Shown here: in pieces, positions 4,433 to 47,739 of the stretch | Layout: each line of letters starts with the position of its first letter | Position numbering within the stretch: the first letter of the stretch is position 1 | Source of the DNA: Phycisphaerae bacterium | GTDB lineage: Bacteria; Planctomycetota; Phycisphaerae; SM23-33 | Direction: 5' to 3' | DNA length: 64,000 nt | NCBI GenBank assembly: GCA_041946855.1 | Contig: JBHGBE010000005.1 | Location: forward strand, 11,108 to 75,107 | Translations under genes and position numbers: made by a program | The notes under the pieces: generated by a model | The model's database searches: none | Seen by the model: only the letters and a program-made list of their open reading frames with translations | Told to the model about the DNA's origin: nothing

Positions 4433-6718
4433 TCAGCCGGCGTCATTCGGAATGGGGTCCGCAACGTTGTTCCCGTCGGGCACGGCTGCCGAGGGGGCTG
4501 GCTGTTCCGCCTGCCCGCCCCTGCGCGGCGGAAGCTCCATCAGGCCATCGCCCATGCGGGCTGCCACGCTCAGGAACGCCTCGACCACCGAGGGATCGAA
4601 CTGCGCGCCGGCGCCTTTCTCGATCTCGGCGCAGGCCTCCTGCCGGTTCTTGGCGGGGCGATAGGTGCGGCTGGAGGTCATCGCGTCGAACGCGTCGGCC
4701 ACCGCCAGGATGCGCGCGGTGAGCGGGATGGCCGCCCCGGAGATGCCCTCGGGGTAGCCCTTGCCGTCAAATCTCTCATGGTGGTAACGGACGGCCGGTA
4801 TCTCCTGCTCCAGGAACTCCATCCCTTCCATGACCTGCACCGACAGCAGCGTGTGCCGGCGCACGAACGCCTGCTGCTTGTCGCTGAGCGAGCCCGGGCT
4901 CAGCAGCACGGCGTCGGGCATCGCGATCATGCCGACATCGTGGAGCATGGCGGCTATCCGCAACTGCTTGACGACCCTGTCGGGAAGCCCCATCTCCCTG
5001 CCAATCAGGATCGAGTAGTGCTCCACCTTAAGCGTGTGGGCGGCCATGTGATGGTTGCGGTGCTCCAGGATGACGACCATTTCCTCTATGGCCCGCAGGA
5101 ACAGTTCCTTGAACTGGTTGTCCAGCCCGGCGAGCTTCTTGCACATCAAGCCGACCCTGTCGCCGGCCTCGCCGCACTGCCGCCAGTTCACGCCGGTCAA
5201 CTCGCGGGCCTGCACGACGCGGTTGCGGCCGCGCTCCTTGGCGGCGTACAGGGCGCGATCGGCCAGGGCCATCAGCGCGTCCGGGCTGTCCATCTCGCCG
5301 CTGTTGAGGTCCGCCACGCCGATTGAGGCCGTGATCGAGATGCGGGCGGACCCGACGCTTATGGGCAGGCCCGACACGCCCATGGAGATCCTCTCGGCCA
5401 CGGCCTGGGCGTCCGCCGCCGTCGTCTCCGGCAGCAGGACCGCGAACTCGTCGCCGCCTAAGCGGGCGGGCAGGTCGGCCTTGCGGCAGGCGGCCTCCAG
5501 CGCTCGCGTGACTTGCCTGAGCACGTCGTCGCCGGATGCGTGGCCGCCGGTGTCGTTGACGGCCTTGAAGAAGTCGACGTCCATCACCATCACCGACAGC
5601 GGTCGGTTGTACCGCCGGGCCTGGTTGTAGAAGGCCGCCAGGACCTGCTCGAAGTGCCTGCGGTTGGCCAGGCCCGTAAGCTGGTCGATCTTGGACATCT
5701 CCGCCAGGCGGTCGAACGCCGATTCCAGCCGCCTCGCCAGCAGCAGCGGCTCGCCGTGGAGGTCCCGGGTCAGTTCGGCGATACAGCCGCGGCCCGACTC
5801 CAGCCACTGGATCTTCTTCAGCAAGCGCATGGCCGGGCCGGTGACCAGCATGTGCGCGCCCATTATCACCATCAGCGACAGGCCTATGGACAGCGACAGG
5901 ACTATGAGGACTGTCCTTCGTCCGGCGGAAGACTGGAGGTTGGCCTGGGATATCGGCAGTGTGACCCGGAAGTAGCCCGCGGGCTTGCCCGACGCATCGT
6001 GTACCTGCCAGGCTCGCGCCAGGATGTCCTCACCGGATCGCCATGTCGAGCAGGTTGAGATGTCTTCGGTTGCCTCCCCCCGTGGAATCGTGCCATCTGC
6101 AACGAACACGACCTCACCCCCGGCGGCCTGACCCATCTTCGCGAGCACATCCGGGCCGACACCGCGGACAAGCCAGAGATGCCCTGCTATCCGCGAGTCC
6201 CGCCCGATCCTCGTGCGGCAGAACACGACCGGCCCGTCAGGCAGCTTCAGGAAGCCGATGAGACTGTCGCGATGGTCGCCTGGGGCGACGGCGGCTATGG
6301 CCTCCGCCAAAGCGCCACCTTCCGCCGGCCTGCTGTCGGTTGGGCCACGGCCTTCTGTCCAGAAGCCCGAGAGGCTTCCATGCGGATCAACCAGCCAGGC
6401 TTGGTCTGCCCCGGCGGATTCGAGCATCTGGTGCACTACGGCGGCGGTCATCGGTTCATCGGTCTTGTCCAGCATCATCTCGACGACTTCCGTTGACCGC
6501 AGCGCCGCGCGAGAGACGCGCCGCAGGCCTTCCTGCTGGCTGCTCAAGACGAGTTTGGCGGCGCTCTGTGCGCGACCGGCCTGCTCGCGGAGCGCCGACC
6601 ACTCCTGCACGCGGGCCCGCGGCCGCAGGTAGAACAGGTCCAGCAGGAAGATGCCGCCGGCGGCAGTCACGGCGAGGATCAGCAGGATGCCTGATGAAGT
6701 CAGTCGGGTCTTGTCCAC
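4433..6718 (-). CDS. Membrane sensor protein with a GGDEF diguanylate cyclase domain and an HD-GYP phosphodiesterase domain
   Basis: 761 aa. N-terminal TM helix plus a periplasmic region and a second TM helix. RLGGDEF motif. HD...HHERFDGKGYP motif. Confidence 0.85.
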   Translation of the reverse strand: MDKTRLTSSGILLILAVTAAGGIFLLDLFYLRPRARVQEWSALREQAGRAQSAAKLVLSSQQEGLRRVSRAALRSTEVVEMMLDKTDEPMTAAVVHQMLESAGADQAWLVDPHGSLSGFWTEGRGPTDSRPAEGGALAEAIAAVAPGDHRDSLIGFLKLPDGPVVFCRTRIGRDSRIAGHLWLVRGVGPDVLAKMGQAAGGEVVFVADGTIPRGEATEDISTCSTWRSGEDILARAWQVHDASGKPAGYFRVTLPISQANLQSSAGRRTVLIVLSLSIGLSLMVIMGAHMLVTGPAMRLLKKIQWLESGRGCIAELTRDLHGEPLLLARRLESAFDRLAEMSKIDQLTGLANRRHFEQVLAAFYNQARRYNRPLSVMVMDVDFFKAVNDTGGHASGDDVLRQVTRALEAACRKADLPARLGGDEFAVLLPETTAADAQAVAERISMGVSGLPISVGSARISITASIGVADLNSGEMDSPDALMALADRALYAAKERGRNRVVQARELTGVNWRQCGEAGDRVGLMCKKLAGLDNQFKELFLRAIEEMVVILEHRNHHMAAHTLKVEHYSILIGREMGLPDRVVKQLRIAAMLHDVGMIAMPDAVLLSPGSLSDKQQAFVRRHTLLSVQVMEGMEFLEQEIPAVRYHHERFDGKGYPEGISGAAIPLTARILAVADAFDAMTSSRTYRPAKNRQEACAEIEKGAGAQFDPSVVEAFLSVAARMGDGLMELPPRRGGQAEQPAPSAAVPDGNNVADPIPNDAG

Positions 6719-25186: not shown

Positions 25187-25501
25187 ATGGGGGACGGGTA
25201 CAATACAGGAATGATGACCCAGGAAGATATCCGTCAAAGACGAGACGCAATCCTTGAGATTGCCCGCCGTTACGGAGCGCACGATGTGCGGATCTTCGGG
25301 TCGGTGGCGCGGGGGGACGTAACGGCAGAATCAGACTTGGATCTGATTGTCAGGTTCGAGGCAGGCCGTTCACTTCTGGACCACGGCGGGCTCGTCATGG
25401 ACCTGCGCGAACTTCTCGGAATCAGGGTTGATGTGATTGACGAAGACGGAATGCGGGAGAGATTCAGAAACCATGTCTTGAAGGAGGCGGTTCCTCTATG
25501 A
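25187..25501 (+). CDS. mntA: MNT nucleotidyltransferase antitoxin (HepT/MNT type VII toxin-antitoxin)
   Basis: IFGSVARGDVTAESDLDLIV matches the minimal nucleotidyltransferase GS...DxD motif. 4-nt overlap with the downstream HEPN gene. Confidence 0.8.
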   Translation: MGDGYNTGMMTQEDIRQRRDAILEIARRYGAHDVRIFGSVARGDVTAESDLDLIVRFEAGRSLLDHGGLVMDLRELLGIRVDVIDEDGMRERFRNHVLKEAVPL

Positions 25502-25845
25502 GGCCAGATCGCCTGCTGCTTCAGGACATCCTCGAAGCAATCAACGAGGTGATCGACGCCACACCCGCCGATATGGCCGCGTTCGATGCCAACAAATTCG
25601 TTCGCTCGCACGTCCTGCGTCATATACAAATCATCGGGGAAGCGACTTGGCGGCTTTCCTCGCAGGTCAAGGACAAGCACCTGGAAGTGCCTTGGAAGAA
25701 GATCGTTGGCATGCGCCATGTGCTGGTCCACGATTACTTCGAGGTCAACTGGGCGCGTGTCTATGAAACCGCTAAGGTGCATGTGCCGCCGCTCAAACCG
25801 ATCATTGAGTCAATACTGGCATCTCTCGGGCCGGAACCAGAATGA
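25498..25845 (+). CDS. hepT: HepT HEPN-domain toxin (DUF86)
   Basis: RHVLVHDY Rx4HxY HEPN motif. DUF86 size and layout. ATGA overlaps on both ends. Confidence 0.8.
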   Translation: MRPDRLLLQDILEAINEVIDATPADMAAFDANKFVRSHVLRHIQIIGEATWRLSSQVKDKHLEVPWKKIVGMRHVLVHDYFEVNWARVYETAKVHVPPLKPIIESILASLGPEPE

Positions 25846-41833: not shown

Positions 41834-43270
41834 ATGAACCAGGAACTTCTACGCATAGTCGAAGGACTGGCCCGGGACCGCAACATCGATGCGGAAACGC
41901 TGTTCGAGGACCTTGAGGCCGCGATAATCTCGGCCATTCGCAAGGCCAATCCGGGCACTGAGGACGTGGCCGCCAACGTCGATCGAAAGACGGGCGACAT
42001 CACCGCGTCGCTGAACGGCCAGCCCATCAGCCAGCGAGACCTGGGCCGCATAGCCGCACAGACGGCCAAGCAGGTGCTGATCCAGCGCGTTCGCGAGGCC
42101 GAGCGCGGCAGCATCTACGAGCAGTACCTGGAGTTGCGCGGCACGATCGTCACCGGCCGTGTCGCGCGGTGGGAGGGCGGCAGCCTGATCGTTGACCTGG
42201 GACGGGTGGAGGCCATCCTGCCCAAGAGCGAGCAGATCCCCGGCGAGCAGGCCCAGCCGGAGGAGCGAGTCCGCGCGATGGTCCTGGAGGTCAAGGAAAG
42301 CCCAAGCCAGGTGCGGATCATCCTGTCGCGGACGCACCCGGACTTCATCAGGGCGCTGTTCGAGCTGGAAGTGCCCGAGGTGGCCGAGAAGATCATCGAG
42401 ATCAAGGCCCTCGCCCGCGAGGCGGGATACCGCACGAAGGTGGCCGTCACGAGCCTTGACCCGAAGGTGGACGCGGTGGGCGCGTGCGTGGGCATCCGCG
42501 GCAGCCGGATCAAGAACATCGTCGATGAGCTGGGCGGCGAGAAGATCGACATCGTCAGGTGGAACGACTCGTCCAAGATACTCATCGCCAACGCGCTCAA
42601 GCCGGCGGAGGTCGCCGAGATCGCACTGTGCTTCGAGCTCGGGCGGGCGACGGTGGTGGTGACGGATGACCAGCTTTCGCTGGCCATCGGGAAGCGCGGG
42701 CAGAACGTCCGCCTGGCTGCCCGGCTGACCGGCTGGGACATCGACATACTGACGCCCAACGAGTTCAACGCGGGCCTCGATACGCTGGAGAAGGCGCTGC
42801 GGTCGGTCGAGGGCGTGGAGTCGACAGTGGTGGACCAGATCGTGGCGATGGGCATGGTGAACGTGCTGGACGTGGAAGAGGTCGGCCCCGATCCGCTGGT
42901 CAACGAGCTGAACATGGACCGCACGCTGGCCCAGAAGATCGTGGTCCGCTGCGCCGAGGAGGCCAAGCGCGTTGCCGCGGAGCAGCAGGCCAACAAGGAA
43001 AAGAAGGCCGCCGCGGCGCAGGCTCCCGCACAGGCCCCCGTGCCGGCTGAGGCGCCGGCCGCTCCGGCCCCGGCAGAGGGCGCAGCCGCCGTTGCGCCGA
43101 CGGAGGGCGCAGCGCCGGCCGCGGCGCCGCCCGAAAACCAGCCTCCGCCCGCTGCTCCGGTGGAAGGCTCGCAGCCGCCTCCGCCGGCGGAGGTTGCCCC
43201 TGGCGATGCGCCAACCCAACCGCCCGCCGCCACGCCGGCCCAGGATGCGCCGGCCGATACGCGGACGTGA
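41834..43270 (+). CDS. nusA: Transcription termination/antitermination factor NusA
   Basis: N-terminal domain, S1 and KH domains. Acidic/Pro-Ala-rich C-terminal extension. Confidence 0.9.
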   Translation: MNQELLRIVEGLARDRNIDAETLFEDLEAAIISAIRKANPGTEDVAANVDRKTGDITASLNGQPISQRDLGRIAAQTAKQVLIQRVREAERGSIYEQYLELRGTIVTGRVARWEGGSLIVDLGRVEAILPKSEQIPGEQAQPEERVRAMVLEVKESPSQVRIILSRTHPDFIRALFELEVPEVAEKIIEIKALAREAGYRTKVAVTSLDPKVDAVGACVGIRGSRIKNIVDELGGEKIDIVRWNDSSKILIANALKPAEVAEIALCFELGRATVVVTDDQLSLAIGKRGQNVRLAARLTGWDIDILTPNEFNAGLDTLEKALRSVEGVESTVVDQIVAMGMVNVLDVEEVGPDPLVNELNMDRTLAQKIVVRCAEEAKRVAAEQQANKEKKAAAAQAPAQAPVPAEAPAAPAPAEGAAAVAPTEGAAPAAAPPENQPPPAAPVEGSQPPPPAEVAPGDAPTQPPAATPAQDAPADTRT

Positions 43271-43315
43271 AGGACAGTACGAACACGCCTCGGCTGAGCG
43301 TTTCAGCCGGGCGAT

Positions 43316-46108
43316 TTGATAGATGAGTGGTTGCCGGGAGGTTTTTCCTTGGCAAAGTTACGTATATCTGATCTGGCCAAAGAGCTCGGCGTGATGAGCA
43401 AGACGGTGCTGGCCAAGTGCCGCGCCGAGGGGATCGACGTCAAGAACCACATGGCCACGGTGTCGGCCGGCCTGGAGGCCACGATCCGCGAGTGGTTCGC
43501 GGAGGGCGGCCTCAAGACAGCCGTCGAGACCACCAAGCACGTTGACCTGGCCAAGGAGCATGAGAAGGCCAGGAAGCAGCGCCGCAAGGGCAAGAAGGAA
43601 GAGCCTGCCGCCGCGCCCGCTGCCGCTGATGTGGCAGCCGTGGCCGTCGAAGAGGCCCCGCCCGTTGAGAAGGTTCCAGTTGTTGAAGCACCGCCGGTCG
43701 AAGAGGTCCCCGCGCCGACGGCCGCGCCTGTCGCGCCGCCGGCCGAAGTCGCCAAGCCCACGGCAGCCCCCGCCGAACCAGCGCCGCCTGCTGCCCCTGC
43801 GCAGCCCGCTCAAGTCGCGGCGAGCGTCGAGCCGCCGCCGGCCGCGCCGGCCAAGCCCGCGCCGCCCGCCGCCCCTGTTCAGCCGGCGGCCGCGACGCCT
43901 CCGGCGGCCGAGCCCCCCAAGCCGGCGCCGCCGAAGGTTCCCATCAAGCCGGCCGGACCGCAACTTGTCCCAAGGCCGGCTCGTCTTCAGGGGCCGCGGG
44001 TCGTCCGCGTGGAAAGGCCCGACTACGTCCAGGCCCCGCGCCGCAGGCCGCCCGCGGCTCCGGCCGCGCCCGAGCCGGCTGCGCCGACGGGCGCCGGCAG
44101 AAGGGGCAGGAAGCCGGCCGTCGTCGTCGAGGAAGAGGAGGAAGGCGCCGGCAAGAAGGGCGCCGCCAAGAAGCGCAGCCCGCGCCGCCGTGGCGGCCGC
44201 AGCGCCGACAGCGGCGAGGTCATCAAGGAATGGCGCGACCAGGACTTGCAGGAGCGCACCGAGCGGATCACGGCCGCGACAGGCGGCCTTCGCCGCCACC
44301 GCGCCGCCGTCACGCAAAAATCCGCCGAGGGCGGCCCGGCCGTCAAGAGCCCGCAGGTCGAGGTCGAGGAGCCCATCACGATAAAGAACCTGTCGGCCGC
44401 CTCAGGCATCAAGGCCGGCGAGTTCATTCGCAAGCTGATGGACCAGGGCACGATGGCGACCGTCAACCAGGTCATCTCGCGCGAGACCGCCGAGTCGCTC
44501 CTGATCGACTACAACGTCGAGCTGATCGTCAAGCGGGCCAGGACCGCCGAGGAGGAGCTGCTCGAGGAGATCCGGAATCGCCCCAAGGGCCCGCTGACCA
44601 CCCGGGCGCCGGTGGTCACGTTCCTGGGCCACGTGGACCACGGCAAGACGTCGCTGTTGGACCGGATCCGCCAGGCCCGCGTGGCCGAGGGCGAGGCCGG
44701 CGGCATCACGCAGCACATCGGCGCGTACCGGTTCGACCGCGGCAAGAGCCACGTGGTCTTCCTTGACACGCCCGGGCACGAGGCGTTCACGGCCATGCGT
44801 GCCCGCGGCGCCAACATGACCGACGTGGTCGTGCTGGTCGTGGCCGCCGACGACGGCGTCATGCCCCAGACCGTCGAGGCCCTCAGCCACGCCAAGGCCG
44901 CCAACGTCCCGATCGTCGTGGCGCTCAACAAGATCGACCTGCCCAACGCCAACGAGCAGAAGGTGCTGGGGCAACTGGCCGAGCACGGCCTCCAGCCCCG
45001 CGAGTGGGGAGGCAACGTCGAGGTCATCCGCACCAGCGCCACCACCGGCCAGGGCATCGACGCGCTTGTCGAGACCCTCAGCCTGGAGGCGGAGCTGCTG
45101 GAGCTGAAGGCCGACAGCGCGGCCCCGGCCAGCGGGTTCGTGATCGAGAGCAAGATGGACAGCGGGCTGGGCGTGCTGGCCCGCCTGCTGGTCCGGGATG
45201 GAACGCTCAGGGCCGGCGACATCTTGCTGGCCGGCGCTGGCTACGGGCGGGTCCGCCTCATGGTCGACGACCGGGGCAGGCCCATCGGCGAGGCCGGGCC
45301 CTCCACGCCGGTCGAAGTGGCCGGGCTGGACGAGATCCCCGAGGCCGGCGACCGGTTCTACGTGCTGGACGACCTGGACAGGGCCCGCGCGGTGGCCGAA
45401 GACCGCCGCCAGAGGTCCAGGGCCGCCGACCTGGCGACCGTCCCCGAGCGCACGCTGGACGCCATGCTGAAGCGGATCGAGGCGGGCCAGGCGACCGAGC
45501 TGAACCTGATTATCAAGGCCGACGTGCAGGGCTCGATAGAGGCCATCACAGGCTCCATCGAGAAGCTGAGCACCGACGAGGTGCGCGTGAAGGTGCTCCA
45601 TGCGGCCGTCGGCGGCATTACGGCCGGCGACGTGGCCCTGGCCGAGGCGTCCGACGCCCTCATCATCGGTTTCAACGCCGTGCCCGACGCGGCCGCGAGG
45701 CAGTTGGCCGAGGCCGCCGGCGTCGATATCCGGCTCTACCGGATCATCTACGACATCATCGAGGACATCCGCAAGGCCCTGGAAGAAGGCCTGGCGCCGG
45801 AAATCCGCATGGAGACGCTGGGGCGGGCGGAGGTCCGCCAGACGTTCAAGGTGTCGCGAGTCGGCACGATCGCCGGCTGCTACGTCACCGACGGCGTGGT
45901 CACGCGCAGCTCGAAGGTCCGCATCACGCGGAACAACGTGGTCGTCGAGGACGAGCGTACGCTGGAGAGCCTCAAGCGGTTCAAGGACGACGCCCGCGAG
46001 GTCCGGGCCGGGCTGGAGTGCGGCATCAAGATCGCCGGCTACGACGACATCAAGGAGGGCGACATACTGGAGTTCTACCAGCGGGTCGAGGTGACAAGGA
46101 AGCTGTAG
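43316..46108 (+). CDS. infB: Translation initiation factor IF-2
   Basis: [13 protein letters not shown]1 motif. [12 protein letters not shown]. Ala/Pro-rich N-terminal linker. The start could be a few codons downstream. Confidence 0.9.
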
Positions 46109-46153
46109 GCAGGGCCTGGACAACGCGAGGCCCTGCCCTGAGGAGCATCGGCT

Positions 46154-46462
46154 ATGGCAGTGAAACCAGTCAATCCGGTGGCCGAGAAGCAAGCCAAGCT
46201 TCTGGCTCTGGATAATCGTAAGGCGGAGCCGGACGTCACTAGAGTATTCTGGTTCCCCGACGACCAGGAAGTCAGGCTGGTCGAGTTGACGGAGGTCGTG
46301 CCGATCAACCCTGACGACGATCTCCATCCGTTCTACTTTCGCCCATCGCCAAGGGACGACATGCCATTGCCAACGGCCTTGGCAATGATCCGACCTGACG
46401 AGTTCGGCAAGCTGAAACCGCCTTCGGAATGGGGCAACTGGTCCGACGCCGTGGAATTGTGA
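46154..46462 (+). CDS. Hypothetical protein (102 aa), first of a two-gene insertion in the nusA-infB-rbfA operon
   Basis: ORF with a plausible start 45 nt after infB. No recognisable family. Confidence 0.45.
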   Translation: MAVKPVNPVAEKQAKLLALDNRKAEPDVTRVFWFPDDQEVRLVELTEVVPINPDDDLHPFYFRPSPRDDMPLPTALAMIRPDEFGKLKPPSEWGNWSDAVEL

Positions 46463-46469
46463 GGACGGA

Positions 46470-46958
46470 ATGGGCTGGCACGAGGCTTATCTGGTCCAGG
46501 CGCGCAGCGAATATGCCGTGCTGAAGAAACTCGGCGACCTTAACGTGGAATACTCCCACCGGCTTCACTACTTGCAGATGCTGACCGAGAAGCTTTCCAA
46601 GGCGATGCAGACGCCCCCTGGCAAACGGGCGCCCGCGCCCATGACGCACGTGATGTTCGTGCAGATGCTTCAGGCGCTCATCAACTGGCCCGAGATGCGG
46701 CGCAGACTGGGCTATGATAGGCCGTCTGTCTTCAGAGAGTACACTAGGTCGCTTCTGGACGTCGCGAGGAGCATCGAACGGCTCTCGCCGGATATCGCGG
46801 GTTTGACCCAGCCCAATCCGGAGTACCCGTGGGAAGACCGTGGCGCCAACCGCGTGTGGGCCCCGGCTGAATTCGATTTCCAGCAGTTCGACCCCAAGGC
46901 TCCGCGGATGGCCAAGATCGCCAAGCTTGTGGATGACTTGATTGTGGCGGCTTACTGA
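46470..46958 (+). CDS. Hypothetical protein (162 aa), second of the two-gene insertion
   Basis: Starts 8 nt after the previous stop. Helical N-terminus. No recognisable family. Confidence 0.45.
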   Translation: MGWHEAYLVQARSEYAVLKKLGDLNVEYSHRLHYLQMLTEKLSKAMQTPPGKRAPAPMTHVMFVQMLQALINWPEMRRRLGYDRPSVFREYTRSLLDVARSIERLSPDIAGLTQPNPEYPWEDRGANRVWAPAEFDFQQFDPKAPRMAKIAKLVDDLIVAAY

Positions 46959-46984
46959 ATGCCTTATGCAGTTGGGCATTACGT

Positions 46985-47317
46985 GTGGCATGCATGAACT
47001 TGTTGTCTGAATCTCCTGGCAAGAGGACCTCGCCGACTGTGGTCGGCCTGGTCCATCTGAAGCTCCACGTCGCCCAGGCGGCGAGCCTCAAGGACAAGCG
47101 CCGGGTGATAAAGGGCTTCAAGGACCGCGTGGCCCACGCGTTCAACGTGTCCATCGCCGAGGTGGACTACCTGGACAACCACCGGATGGCCCTGCTGGCG
47201 GTGGCGATGGTCGGCAACGACAGGGCATACGTCGATGGCGCGCTGCAAGAGGTCATCAACCTGGCCGCGATGCACCGGGACATGGTCCTGCTGGAAAGCG
47301 AGATTCAGTGGCTATGA
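46985..47317 (+). CDS. DUF503 (YlxP-like) protein
   Basis: LKLHVAQAASLKDKRRVIKGFKDRVAHAFNVSIAEVD matches the DUF503 pattern. Canonical position immediately upstream of rbfA, overlapping it. Confidence 0.7.
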   Translation: MACMNLLSESPGKRTSPTVVGLVHLKLHVAQAASLKDKRRVIKGFKDRVAHAFNVSIAEVDYLDNHRMALLAVAMVGNDRAYVDGALQEVINLAAMHRDMVLLESEIQWL

Positions 47318-47739
47318 CGCGAAGGCTCGAGCGGATAAACAACCTGATCCGCAACACCATCGGCGAGCTGGTGCTGTCGAAGCTCTCCGACCCGCGTATC
47401 GACCCCGCGCGCGTGTCGGTGACGCGGGTGCAGACGGCCGACGACTTCCTTTCGGCCACGGTGTTCGTGTCGGTGCTGGGCGAGGAAAAGCAGCAGAAGC
47501 TGGCCCTGGCGGCCCTTCAGCACGCGGCCGGGCACGTCCAGGAGCTGATGATGCGGCAGATCGACCTCCGCAACACGCCCGTGCTGACGTTCAGGCTGGA
47601 CAAGCAGTTCAAGAAGACGCTCCAGACGCTCCAGATCCTCCAGAAGGTCTCGGAGGAGATACGGCGGAAGGACCAGGCGCGGGCCGCCGCTGGTTTCGAT
47701 GCCTCGGACCCGCCACGCGCCGGCGAGGACCGTGGCTGA
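47308..47739 (+). CDS. rbfA: Ribosome-binding factor A
   Basis: RRLERINNLIRNTIGELVL...DPRI...VSVTRVQTADDFLSATVFVSVLG. Confidence 0.85.
   Translation: MAMTRRLERINNLIRNTIGELVLSKLSDPRIDPARVSVTRVQTADDFLSATVFVSVLGEEKQQKLALAALQHAAGHVQELMMRQIDLRNTPVLTFRLDKQFKKTLQTLQILQKVSEEIRRKDQARAAAGFDASDPPRAGEDRG

Follow-up and report, generated by a model that had tools for sequence, protein, structure and literature searches.

Genes between infB and DUF503

The window, i.e., the whole stretch of 64,000 nt analyzed here from a Phycisphaerae contig (JBHGBE010000005.1), contains two small open reading frames (ORFs), ORF-A and ORF-B, between infB and the DUF503 gene. The two form a horizontally acquired, obligately paired two-gene module, in which one protein has a nucleotidyltransferase (NTase) fold and the other a HEPN fold. 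They belong to a large family that is unrecognized by annotation resources. The operon order around the pair was nusA (41834-43270), infB (43316-46108), DUF503 (46985-47317), and rbfA (47308-47739). The window features described below lie on the forward strand.

ORF-A (46154-46462) encodes 102 aa and ORF-B (46470-46958) encodes 162 aa, both from ATG starts. An earlier note, made from the sequence of the window alone, had placed two ORFs of these lengths between infB and the DUF503/rbfA genes, and its coordinates were exact. The gap between them, given there as 8 nt, is 7 nt long (GGACGGA, 46463-46469). A Shine-Dalgarno-like GAGGA (46461-46465) overlaps the ORF-A stop codon. Upstream of ORF-A, the 5' junction of the cassette (46138-46153) was found to contain another Shine-Dalgarno-like sequence, i.e., GAGGAG (46140-46145), 8 nt before the ATG.

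The composition of the pair differed from that of its surroundings. GC content at third codon positions (GC3) was 0.709 in ORF-A and 0.791 in ORF-B versus 0.863 +/- 0.041 in 37 long ORFs of the window, i.e., 3.7 and 1.8 standard deviations below the window mean, respectively, which contradicts the earlier description of the codon usage as typical of the genome. The neighboring genes showed GC3 of 0.87-0.91. Overall GC was 0.58-0.60 across the pair versus 0.66-0.70 in the flanking genes, and the GC of the pair was under that of the flanks in all ten occurrences examined (nine loci). Pro/Ala-rich low-complexity stretches are present in the C-terminus of NusA (42850-43300) and the N-terminal region of IF-2 (43600-44350), where local GC reaches 0.79, and they inflate the GC contrast between the flanks and the inserted pair.

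Insertion into a conserved operon

Relatives of the locus were found by scanning species-representative genomes with the window DUF503 protein, and nine loci were returned. The five closest (L016-L020) are all metagenome-assembled genomes (MAGs) of Planctomycetota/Phycisphaerae, with identities to the window of 66-79% in nusA, 61-75% in infB, and 73-80% in hisG. Their common gene order is nusA-infB-DUF503-rbfA-(316-aa gene)-hisG, and 2-85 nt separate the infB stop from the DUF503 start. Neither ORF-A nor ORF-B was found in these five loci by tblastn (0/5). The pair is therefore an insertion into the otherwise conserved nusA-infB-DUF503-rbfA operon in the window lineage, as had been supposed. 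The comparison of infB-rbfA among relatives, which the earlier note proposed as a check, thus agreed with it, since the pair is not syntenic in all of them.

The ends of the inserted segment were located by folding and by comparison with the relatives. A stem-loop (GCAGGGCCU...AGGCCCUGC) without a U-tract was predicted right after the infB stop (46109-46137). The minimum free energy of the region 46100-46160 was -30.3 kcal/mol, with a z-score of -2.6, and 3 of 200 shuffled sequences folded as well. Stem-loops of different sequence were also predicted right after the infB stop in the pair-free relatives, i.e., L017:4587-4680, L018:1950-2015, L019:5979-6035, and L020:1277-1345, with z-scores of -1.4 to -4.1. 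Because relatives without the insertion carry a hairpin at the same position, the hairpin is an ancestral feature of the operon, and its candidacy as a part of the cassette was rejected. It may serve the operon in RNA stability or attenuation. The cassette begins inside the 16 nt separating the hairpin from the start codon of ORF-A.

The 3' tail of the inserted segment (46959-47038) overlaps the start region of DUF503, which is ambiguous. In the relatives, DUF503 begins with M-(A/S)-T-V-V-G or at the GTG of V-V-G, and this start lies 2-70 nt past the infB stop. The window counterpart reads S-P-T-V-V-G and has no ATG at that place. With this start context altered, DUF503 of the window must begin at one of three candidate codons, i.e., GTG 46985, ATG 46994, or GTG 47039.

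No sigma-70-like promoter was recognized at 45900-47400, and no intrinsic-terminator pattern or Rfam family was recognized at 45800-47400. The 5' junction is too short for a promoter ahead of ORF-A. As neither a promoter-like nor a terminator-like site was recognized there, the simplest explanation is one transcript shared with infB and rbfA, and ORF-A and ORF-B are probably transcribed together with nusA-infB-DUF503-rbfA.

Family size and obligate pairing

Neither ORF-A nor ORF-B matched Pfam, NCBIfam, PADLOC, or PHROGs at E<=1, and database entries for the window proteins list them as hypothetical, from a Phycisphaerae MAG. Single-sequence searches returned 63 homologs of ORF-B and 30 of ORF-A, nearly all of conserved length. 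The families became much larger in profile searches, with at least 515 proteins for ORF-A (E<=0.01) and at least 1,309 clusters at 50% identity for ORF-B (E<=0.001), 194 of them with E<=1e-30. The best 150 ORF-B representatives were all stand-alone proteins of 113-196 aa. Homologs were seen in MAGs of Phycisphaerae, Phycisphaerales, and Tepidisphaeraceae. Such large families with conserved lengths answer the earlier question of conservation, and ORF-A and ORF-B are genuine conserved genes, clearly more than chance ORFs.

Pairing was analyzed in 104 loci, in which gene calls were anchored on hidden Markov models (HMMs) of the two families and 97 ORF-B occurrences were obtained. An ORF-A-family gene was recognized by HMM directly upstream on the same strand in 83 of the 97. 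Another six had a divergent upstream ORF that clustered by BLAST with a bona fide ORF-A homolog. The remaining eight comprised four at contig edges and four without a resolved upstream gene. An ORF-A homolog was thus found upstream in 89 of the 93 occurrences with room for one, and the gene order was always A and then B.

The commonest spacing between the two genes was a 4-nt ATGA overlap (35 of 67 unique pairs). Overlapping reading frames usually imply coupled translation. The pairwise distance matrices of A and B were correlated (r=0.895), and none of 2000 Mantel permutations gave a value as high. The strict pairing and the correlated divergence indicate that ORF-A and ORF-B are inherited and transferred as one unit.

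Predicted structures and conserved residues

AlphaFold2 models of both proteins were built with family alignments and searched with Foldseek, as the earlier note had proposed. Its statement that neither protein has a recognizable domain holds for the sequence searches above. By predicted structure it fails, as the models place ORF-A in the NTase fold and ORF-B in the HEPN fold.

The ORF-A model had a predicted local distance difference test score (pLDDT) of 92.7 and a predicted template-modeling score (pTM) of 0.84. Its best match in the PDB was the NTase domain of ANT(4') (6nmk_A, probability 0.99, E 5.4e-3, TMq 0.52). Further matches were 4ebk (ANT(4')-IIb), 9dbh HalB, TUT7, the minimal NTase 2rff (template-modeling score, TM, 0.52/0.48), and the MntA chains 7aer and 6m6v. 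ORF-A is therefore predicted to have the alpha-beta fold of minimal nucleotidyltransferases (MNT-like). Over 70 diverse family members, the conserved residues were A14, L17, P26, R/K41, L42, E44, F62, E83, P90, and W93.

The catalytic motif of NTases (hG[GS]/DxD) was not found in ORF-A. No hG[GS] is present, and no G[ST] motif was found ahead of the strand 'EVRLVEL'. In the 70 members, this strand has the pattern E39-x-R41-L-x-E44, not DxD. The residues D37-x-E39 were considered as a DxE dyad like that of kanamycin nucleotidyltransferase. They are kept in close homologs, and the candidate was rejected since D37 is variable in the widened alignment. In 12 of the 70 sequences, Pro stands in place of E39.

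The ORF-B model had a pLDDT of 93.3 and a pTM of 0.86. Its top three matches in the PDB were all HEPN domains, i.e., sacsin 3o10_D (probability 0.99), AF_0298 2hsb (0.91), and 3o10_C (0.92). These matches had TM of 0.44-0.58 and weak E-values of 0.16-0.5, and the probability of every other match was 0.25 or lower. No match was found among viral structures when ORF-B was searched with Foldseek against BFVD. ORF-B is thus predicted to be a HEPN fold of the nucleotidyltransferase-associated (AF0298/PF05168-like) type. A minimal nucleotidyltransferase upstream of a HEPN protein is a known partnership, and the two independent fold results converge on it.

Conservation in ORF-B was computed over 156 diverse representatives. 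N116 and E118 were conserved in 100%, Q10, Q36, M37, E40, H60, P107, Y119, P120, and P132 in 99%, H33, K41, and W121 in 97%, and K44 in 95%. D14 (91%), C29 (88%), and H30 (85%) followed, and in the window protein position 14 is E and position 29 is S. The E40x3K44 motif falls within a predicted helix (28-47), and H60 belongs to the loop (48-62) that leads to the next helix (63-71). The Rx4-6H motif is missing from the window protein. In the 156 members, no conserved Arg or His was found after residue 60, and no conserved Arg or Lys at residues 100-125. ORF-B also carries an extension of approximately 40 residues with a beta-hairpin after core helix 3.

Comparison with known NTase/HEPN systems

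Class I HEPN/MNT modules are defined by GSX10DXD in the MNT protein and RX4HXY in the HEPN protein (Yao et al., PMC7641770). In class II, the PF05168 HEPN lacks RX4HXY and keeps a conserved Tyr, and its MNT retains GSX10DXD (PMC7641770). Ex3[KR] in helix 2 is common among HEPN families, and the place of Rx4-6H is the end of helix 3 (Anantharaman et al., PMC3710099). HEPN-T proteins of the AF0298 type carry a conserved alternative His within the segment inserted between helices 2 and 3 (PMC3710099).

The pair resembles the class I modules, i.e., HepT/MntA type VII, in gene order, sizes (approximately 100 aa and 115-160 aa), close or overlapping frames, NTase and HEPN folds, and patchy distribution over many contexts. 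It differs in the lack of both GSX10DXD and RX4HXY/Rx4-6H, and because these motifs are absent, neither RNase toxicity nor AMPylation-based neutralization can be assumed for it. A canonical type VII pair is present in the same window. Its MntA gene (25187-25501) and HepT gene (25498-25845) are on the forward strand with a 4-nt ATGA overlap, directly after a ThiF/MoeB-like gene that was assigned by eye from its sequence. This MntA carries GSVARGDVTAESDLDL (Pfam NTP_transf_2, E 8e-11), and the HepT carries R-HVLV-H-D-Y (Pfam HepT-like, E 7.9e-25). In a pattern search for GSX10DXD over the window and all loci, only this MntA matched.

The class II modules (AF_0298/PDB 2hsb with a PF01909 MNT) share with the pair a tightly spaced gene order, i.e., the NTase-fold gene first and the HEPN-fold gene second. 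They also share a HEPN protein that lacks RX4HXY/Rx4-6H and is folded as an up-down bundle of four helices, in which an insert separates helices 2 and 3. Three HEPN features of this class are kept by ORF-B, i.e., Ex3[KR] (E40x3K44), the alternative His (H60), and a Tyr near the former motif (Y119). In contrast, the two window proteins have no PF05168 or PF01909 match (E<=1), and ORF-B has the beta-hairpin extension. The basic residue of the former Rx4-6H is not retained and an invariant Glu in N-x-E-Y-P-W is found instead, and ORF-A lacks the GSX10DXD that class II MNTs keep. No matches to PF01934/PF08780 or PF01909 were found for the window ORFs (Pfam, E<=1) or for 38 ORF-B relatives (E<=10). 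Taken by motifs, the pair fails class I, partly agrees with class II on the HEPN side, and fails both classes on the MNT side.

ANT(4'), the best structural match of ORF-A, consists of an NTase and a HEPN-like C-terminal domain (PMC3710099), an architecture equal to a fusion of ORF-A and ORF-B. Unlike ANT(4'), ORF-A and ORF-B are two genes, ORF-A lacks the catalytic Gly-Ser and the Asp/Glu dyad, and no resistance contexts were seen. The HEPN-T family of Cpin_6617 (PMC3710099) is similar by its description only, which gives it as mostly bacterial, NT-associated, and without conserved Rx4-6H. It was described with fusions to ferredoxin-domain dyads, and none was found among the top 150 ORF-B representatives. 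No PADLOC-DB 2.0 defense model matched at E<=1. The occurrence of the pair in a BREX-like locus is context, not membership.

Genomic contexts of the pair

The pair was found in many kinds of surroundings. In Tepidisphaeraceae it lies 55 nt downstream of a tRNA-Met gene (L001:5555-5627), after a T2SSE ATPase gene. tRNA genes are a classic integration hotspot. In six loci (L004, L006, L026, L027, L028, and L030), the pair was located between sufD and sufS. It also occurred between groEL and dnaK (L037:4681-5516) or dnaJ (L074:3479-4281 and L076:1337-2129), and after rplU-rpmA-obg and before the RNase J gene rnj (L015). In L043 it stands after rplK, downstream of tuf, where EF-Tu was assigned by a sequence motif alone. 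Other positions were next to a ParE toxin gene, ahead of an RlmI-like rRNA methyltransferase gene, between GH2 glycosidase and GNAT genes with a HigB toxin gene nearby (one locus), and alone between divergently oriented genes (one locus). In the BREX-like locus (L012:5705-6489), the pair lies between a gene for 1147 aa at the brxC position and a gene for a PglX-like methyltransferase (1129 aa), with DUF932 and PglZ genes downstream.

The immediate neighbors of the 97 occurrences belonged to 124 Pfam families. Upstream neighbors were co-directional in 37 cases and divergent in 22, and downstream neighbors were co-directional in 33 and convergent in 30. These orientations indicate that the module is autonomous at many sites and embedded in operons, with spacers of 6-45 nt, at others. 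A preference for highly expressed stress, translation, or proteostasis operons is suggestive only. Translation, chaperone, and Fe-S neighbors account for about 6-7 of about 45 contexts after collapsing common descent, by an informal estimate. The position in the nusA-infB-rbfA operon is less remarkable than had been supposed in the earlier note, as the module habitually settles at such sites and a more distant Planctomycetota MAG has another gene at this junction.

Paralogs were also observed. One contig carries two copies of the pair, 62% identical and 3.5 kb apart (L013:2129-2964 and 5678-6513), and at least six paralog lineages were found in one metagenome (Ga0247727). A subfamily with proteins of 108 aa and 170 aa was recognized in L010, L013, L014, L048, L050, L056, and L057. 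The L013 and L014 copies are each followed by a convergent, slightly overlapping gene for a SpoIIE/PP2C phosphatase. The downstream genes at L010, L048, L050, L056, and L057 were tied to these phosphatase genes by BLAST clustering only. This layout may reflect segmental duplication or a functional link with PP2C signaling genes.

Proposed function and alternative explanations

The pair is most readily explained, with a probability of about 0.5, as a HEPN/MNT module that has diverged strongly from class II (PF05168/AF0298-type) and is toxin-antitoxin (TA)-like with different chemistry. A TA-like conflict module is the most likely function predicted for it, at roughly even odds. This prediction follows from the strict pairing, overlapping frames, patchy distribution over many contexts, paralogy, low GC, and BREX-like or toxin neighbors.

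The module was inserted downstream of the stem-loop that follows infB and ahead of the DUF503 start, and it brought no promoter of its own. In the mechanism that we infer, which covers the complex, the toxicity, its target, and the neutralization, the ORF-A and ORF-B proteins would form a tight complex. The HEPN-like ORF-B would be the effector and would act through a near-invariant polar surface, not through the canonical RNase site. This putative surface would be composed of a face of helix 2 (H33, Q36/M37, E40/K41, and K44), H60 in the insert between helices 2 and 3, and the loop N116-x-E118-Y119-P120-W121 at the usual place of Rx4-6H. The MNT-like ORF-A would be the cognate partner that neutralizes ORF-B by sequestration, a behavior like that of type II toxin-antitoxins. 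Since GSX10DXD and Rx4-6H/RX4HXY are both missing, the mechanism is most likely not AMPylation of an RNase.

Several results weigh against a TA-like, class II-derived module. GSX10DXD and every other NTase catalytic signature are absent from ORF-A, and in ORF-B the invariant E118 of the loop stands where the Arg of Rx4-6H is expected, an equivalence drawn from topology. With these signatures missing, no known toxic or neutralizing chemistry can be assigned. The fold matches of both ORFs were moderate (TM 0.44-0.58, Foldseek E 5e-3 to 0.5), and no sequence-level link of either ORF to NTase/HEPN families was obtained. One of 38 ORF-B relatives matched PF05168 with E 0.094 (Pfam, E<=10), the rest being noise, and the window protein had no match. 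Both family profiles found no match at E<=10 among all PDB sequences, and hhalign against the HepT and MntA of the window gave probabilities of 0.3% and 0.04%. The 90-nt flanks of ten occurrences (nine loci) shared no repeats, hairpins, attachment-like sites, or recombination sites, and only Shine-Dalgarno sequences were common to them. No homolog was found in 72,556 plasmids (PLSDB), 50,697 GenBank phage records, or 2.9 million IMG/VR viral contigs, whereas a mobile TA family would usually be present there. Within the suf clade, divergence of the pair has tracked that of SufS (SufS 57-87% and ORF-B 48-75% identical). This indicates long vertical retention, for which addiction is no better an explanation than a useful cellular function.

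Such a function is the core of the nearest alternative, i.e., that the pair is a domesticated MNT/HEPN derivative. It would form a non-toxic heterocomplex, ligand- or RNA-binding or a new enzyme built on the His/Glu/Lys/Tyr/Asn residues of ORF-B, with a selectable and perhaps stress-related cellular role. Domestication would explain the retention inside suf, groEL-dnaK/J, infB-rbfA, obg-rnj, and rplK operons, and it accords with the repeated co-directional embedding in housekeeping operons with short spacers, with the SufS co-divergence in six loci, and with the lack of the pair on the plasmids, phages, and viral contigs searched. Both canonical motifs were lost, yet approximately 15 other ORF-B residues are 95-100% conserved. 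A precedent is known, as MNT-HEPN pairs have been 'domesticated' into regulatory enzymes with inactive HEPN domains (PMC3710099). However, the pair is patchy even among close relatives, being absent at the infB site in all five, and its GC is under that of the flanks everywhere examined. Its contexts include the BREX-like locus and the HigB and ParE neighbors, and diverged paralogs on one contig are typical of conflict modules. The excess of translation, chaperone, and Fe-S neighbors is modest by our own estimate. Domestication is a serious alternative, though less likely than the TA-like module.

It is unlikely, though less so than the alternatives below, that the pair belongs to a large and so far unrecognized third class of heterocomplexes derived from NTase/HEPN modules. 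Such a class would not be a selfish toxin-antitoxin system and would have been repeatedly recruited into core operons of stress, proteostasis, and translation (suf, groEL-dnaK/J, infB-rbfA, obg-rnj, and rplK). Both ancestral active sites would be replaced in it by a new, near-invariant His/Glu/Lys/Asn/Tyr site, and its new biochemical role would couple RNA/protein quality control to stress.

A split enzyme of the kanamycin nucleotidyltransferase type is improbable. ORF-A would be its catalytic subunit and ORF-B a HEPN-like substrate-binding subunit, and together they would modify a small molecule, protein, or RNA. The match of ORF-A to the NTase domain of ANT(4'), which itself carries a HEPN-like domain (PMC3710099), suggests such an enzyme, and strict pairing with co-divergence would suit two subunits. 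However, ORF-A has no hG[GS], D37 is variable and E39 is Pro in some members, and the strand reads E-x-R-L-x-E, not DxD. In MntA, even a change of DxD to ExE abolishes transfer (PMC7641770).

The least probable explanation, with hardly any chance left to it, is that the pair encodes factors for translation or ribosome biogenesis that are specific to the infB-rbfA operon. The pair does sit between infB and rbfA, and a few homologous pairs follow obg or rplK or precede the RlmI-like methyltransferase gene. However, synteny largely refutes this idea, as the five closest genomes have this operon without the pair. Most homologs occur in unrelated surroundings, and neither protein showed similarity to a known family of translation factors. 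The earlier note had offered a translation-associated pair or a TA/defense-like module. The former was not borne out, and the module-like character was upheld by the strict pairing, the common overlap, the unrelated contexts, and the paralogs.

HEPN/MNT modules are already well known, and among prokaryotic toxin-antitoxin classes they are considered the most abundant (PMC7641770). The new features are that this family has no family model, that both catalytic signatures are replaced, and that its chemistry is unpredictable from known members. To our knowledge, a mechanism has been established for class I HEPN/MNT only, where AMPylation silences an RNase. The present family comprises at least 1,300 clusters at 50% identity, goes unrecognized by Pfam, NCBIfam, and PADLOC, and lacks both class I motifs. 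It therefore marks an area of unexplained chemistry among NTase/HEPN proteins, and the residue conservation in ORF-B supplies concrete targets for mutagenesis. The contexts indicate that small promoter-less modules can settle in operons usually deemed untouchable, such as nusA-infB-rbfA, suf, groEL-dnaK, and obg. Such insertions matter when operons of environmental lineages, Planctomycetota among them, are annotated and interpreted. The finding is ordinary if the pair proves to be merely a degenerate TA remnant.

Neighboring genes

The genes on both sides of the pair were assigned. infB encodes IF-2 in an ORF of 930 aa. The DUF503 protein matched Pfam PF04456 (E 7e-26), and the rbfA product matched PF02033 (E 3.7e-24).

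In a more distant Planctomycetota MAG (JADFRO010000110.1, L021:2875-4095), a different, unrelated gene for 406 aa was found between infB and DUF503, which indicates that this junction has been invaded more than once. By eye, its protein shows Cys-rich N-terminal motifs and a hydrophobic segment.

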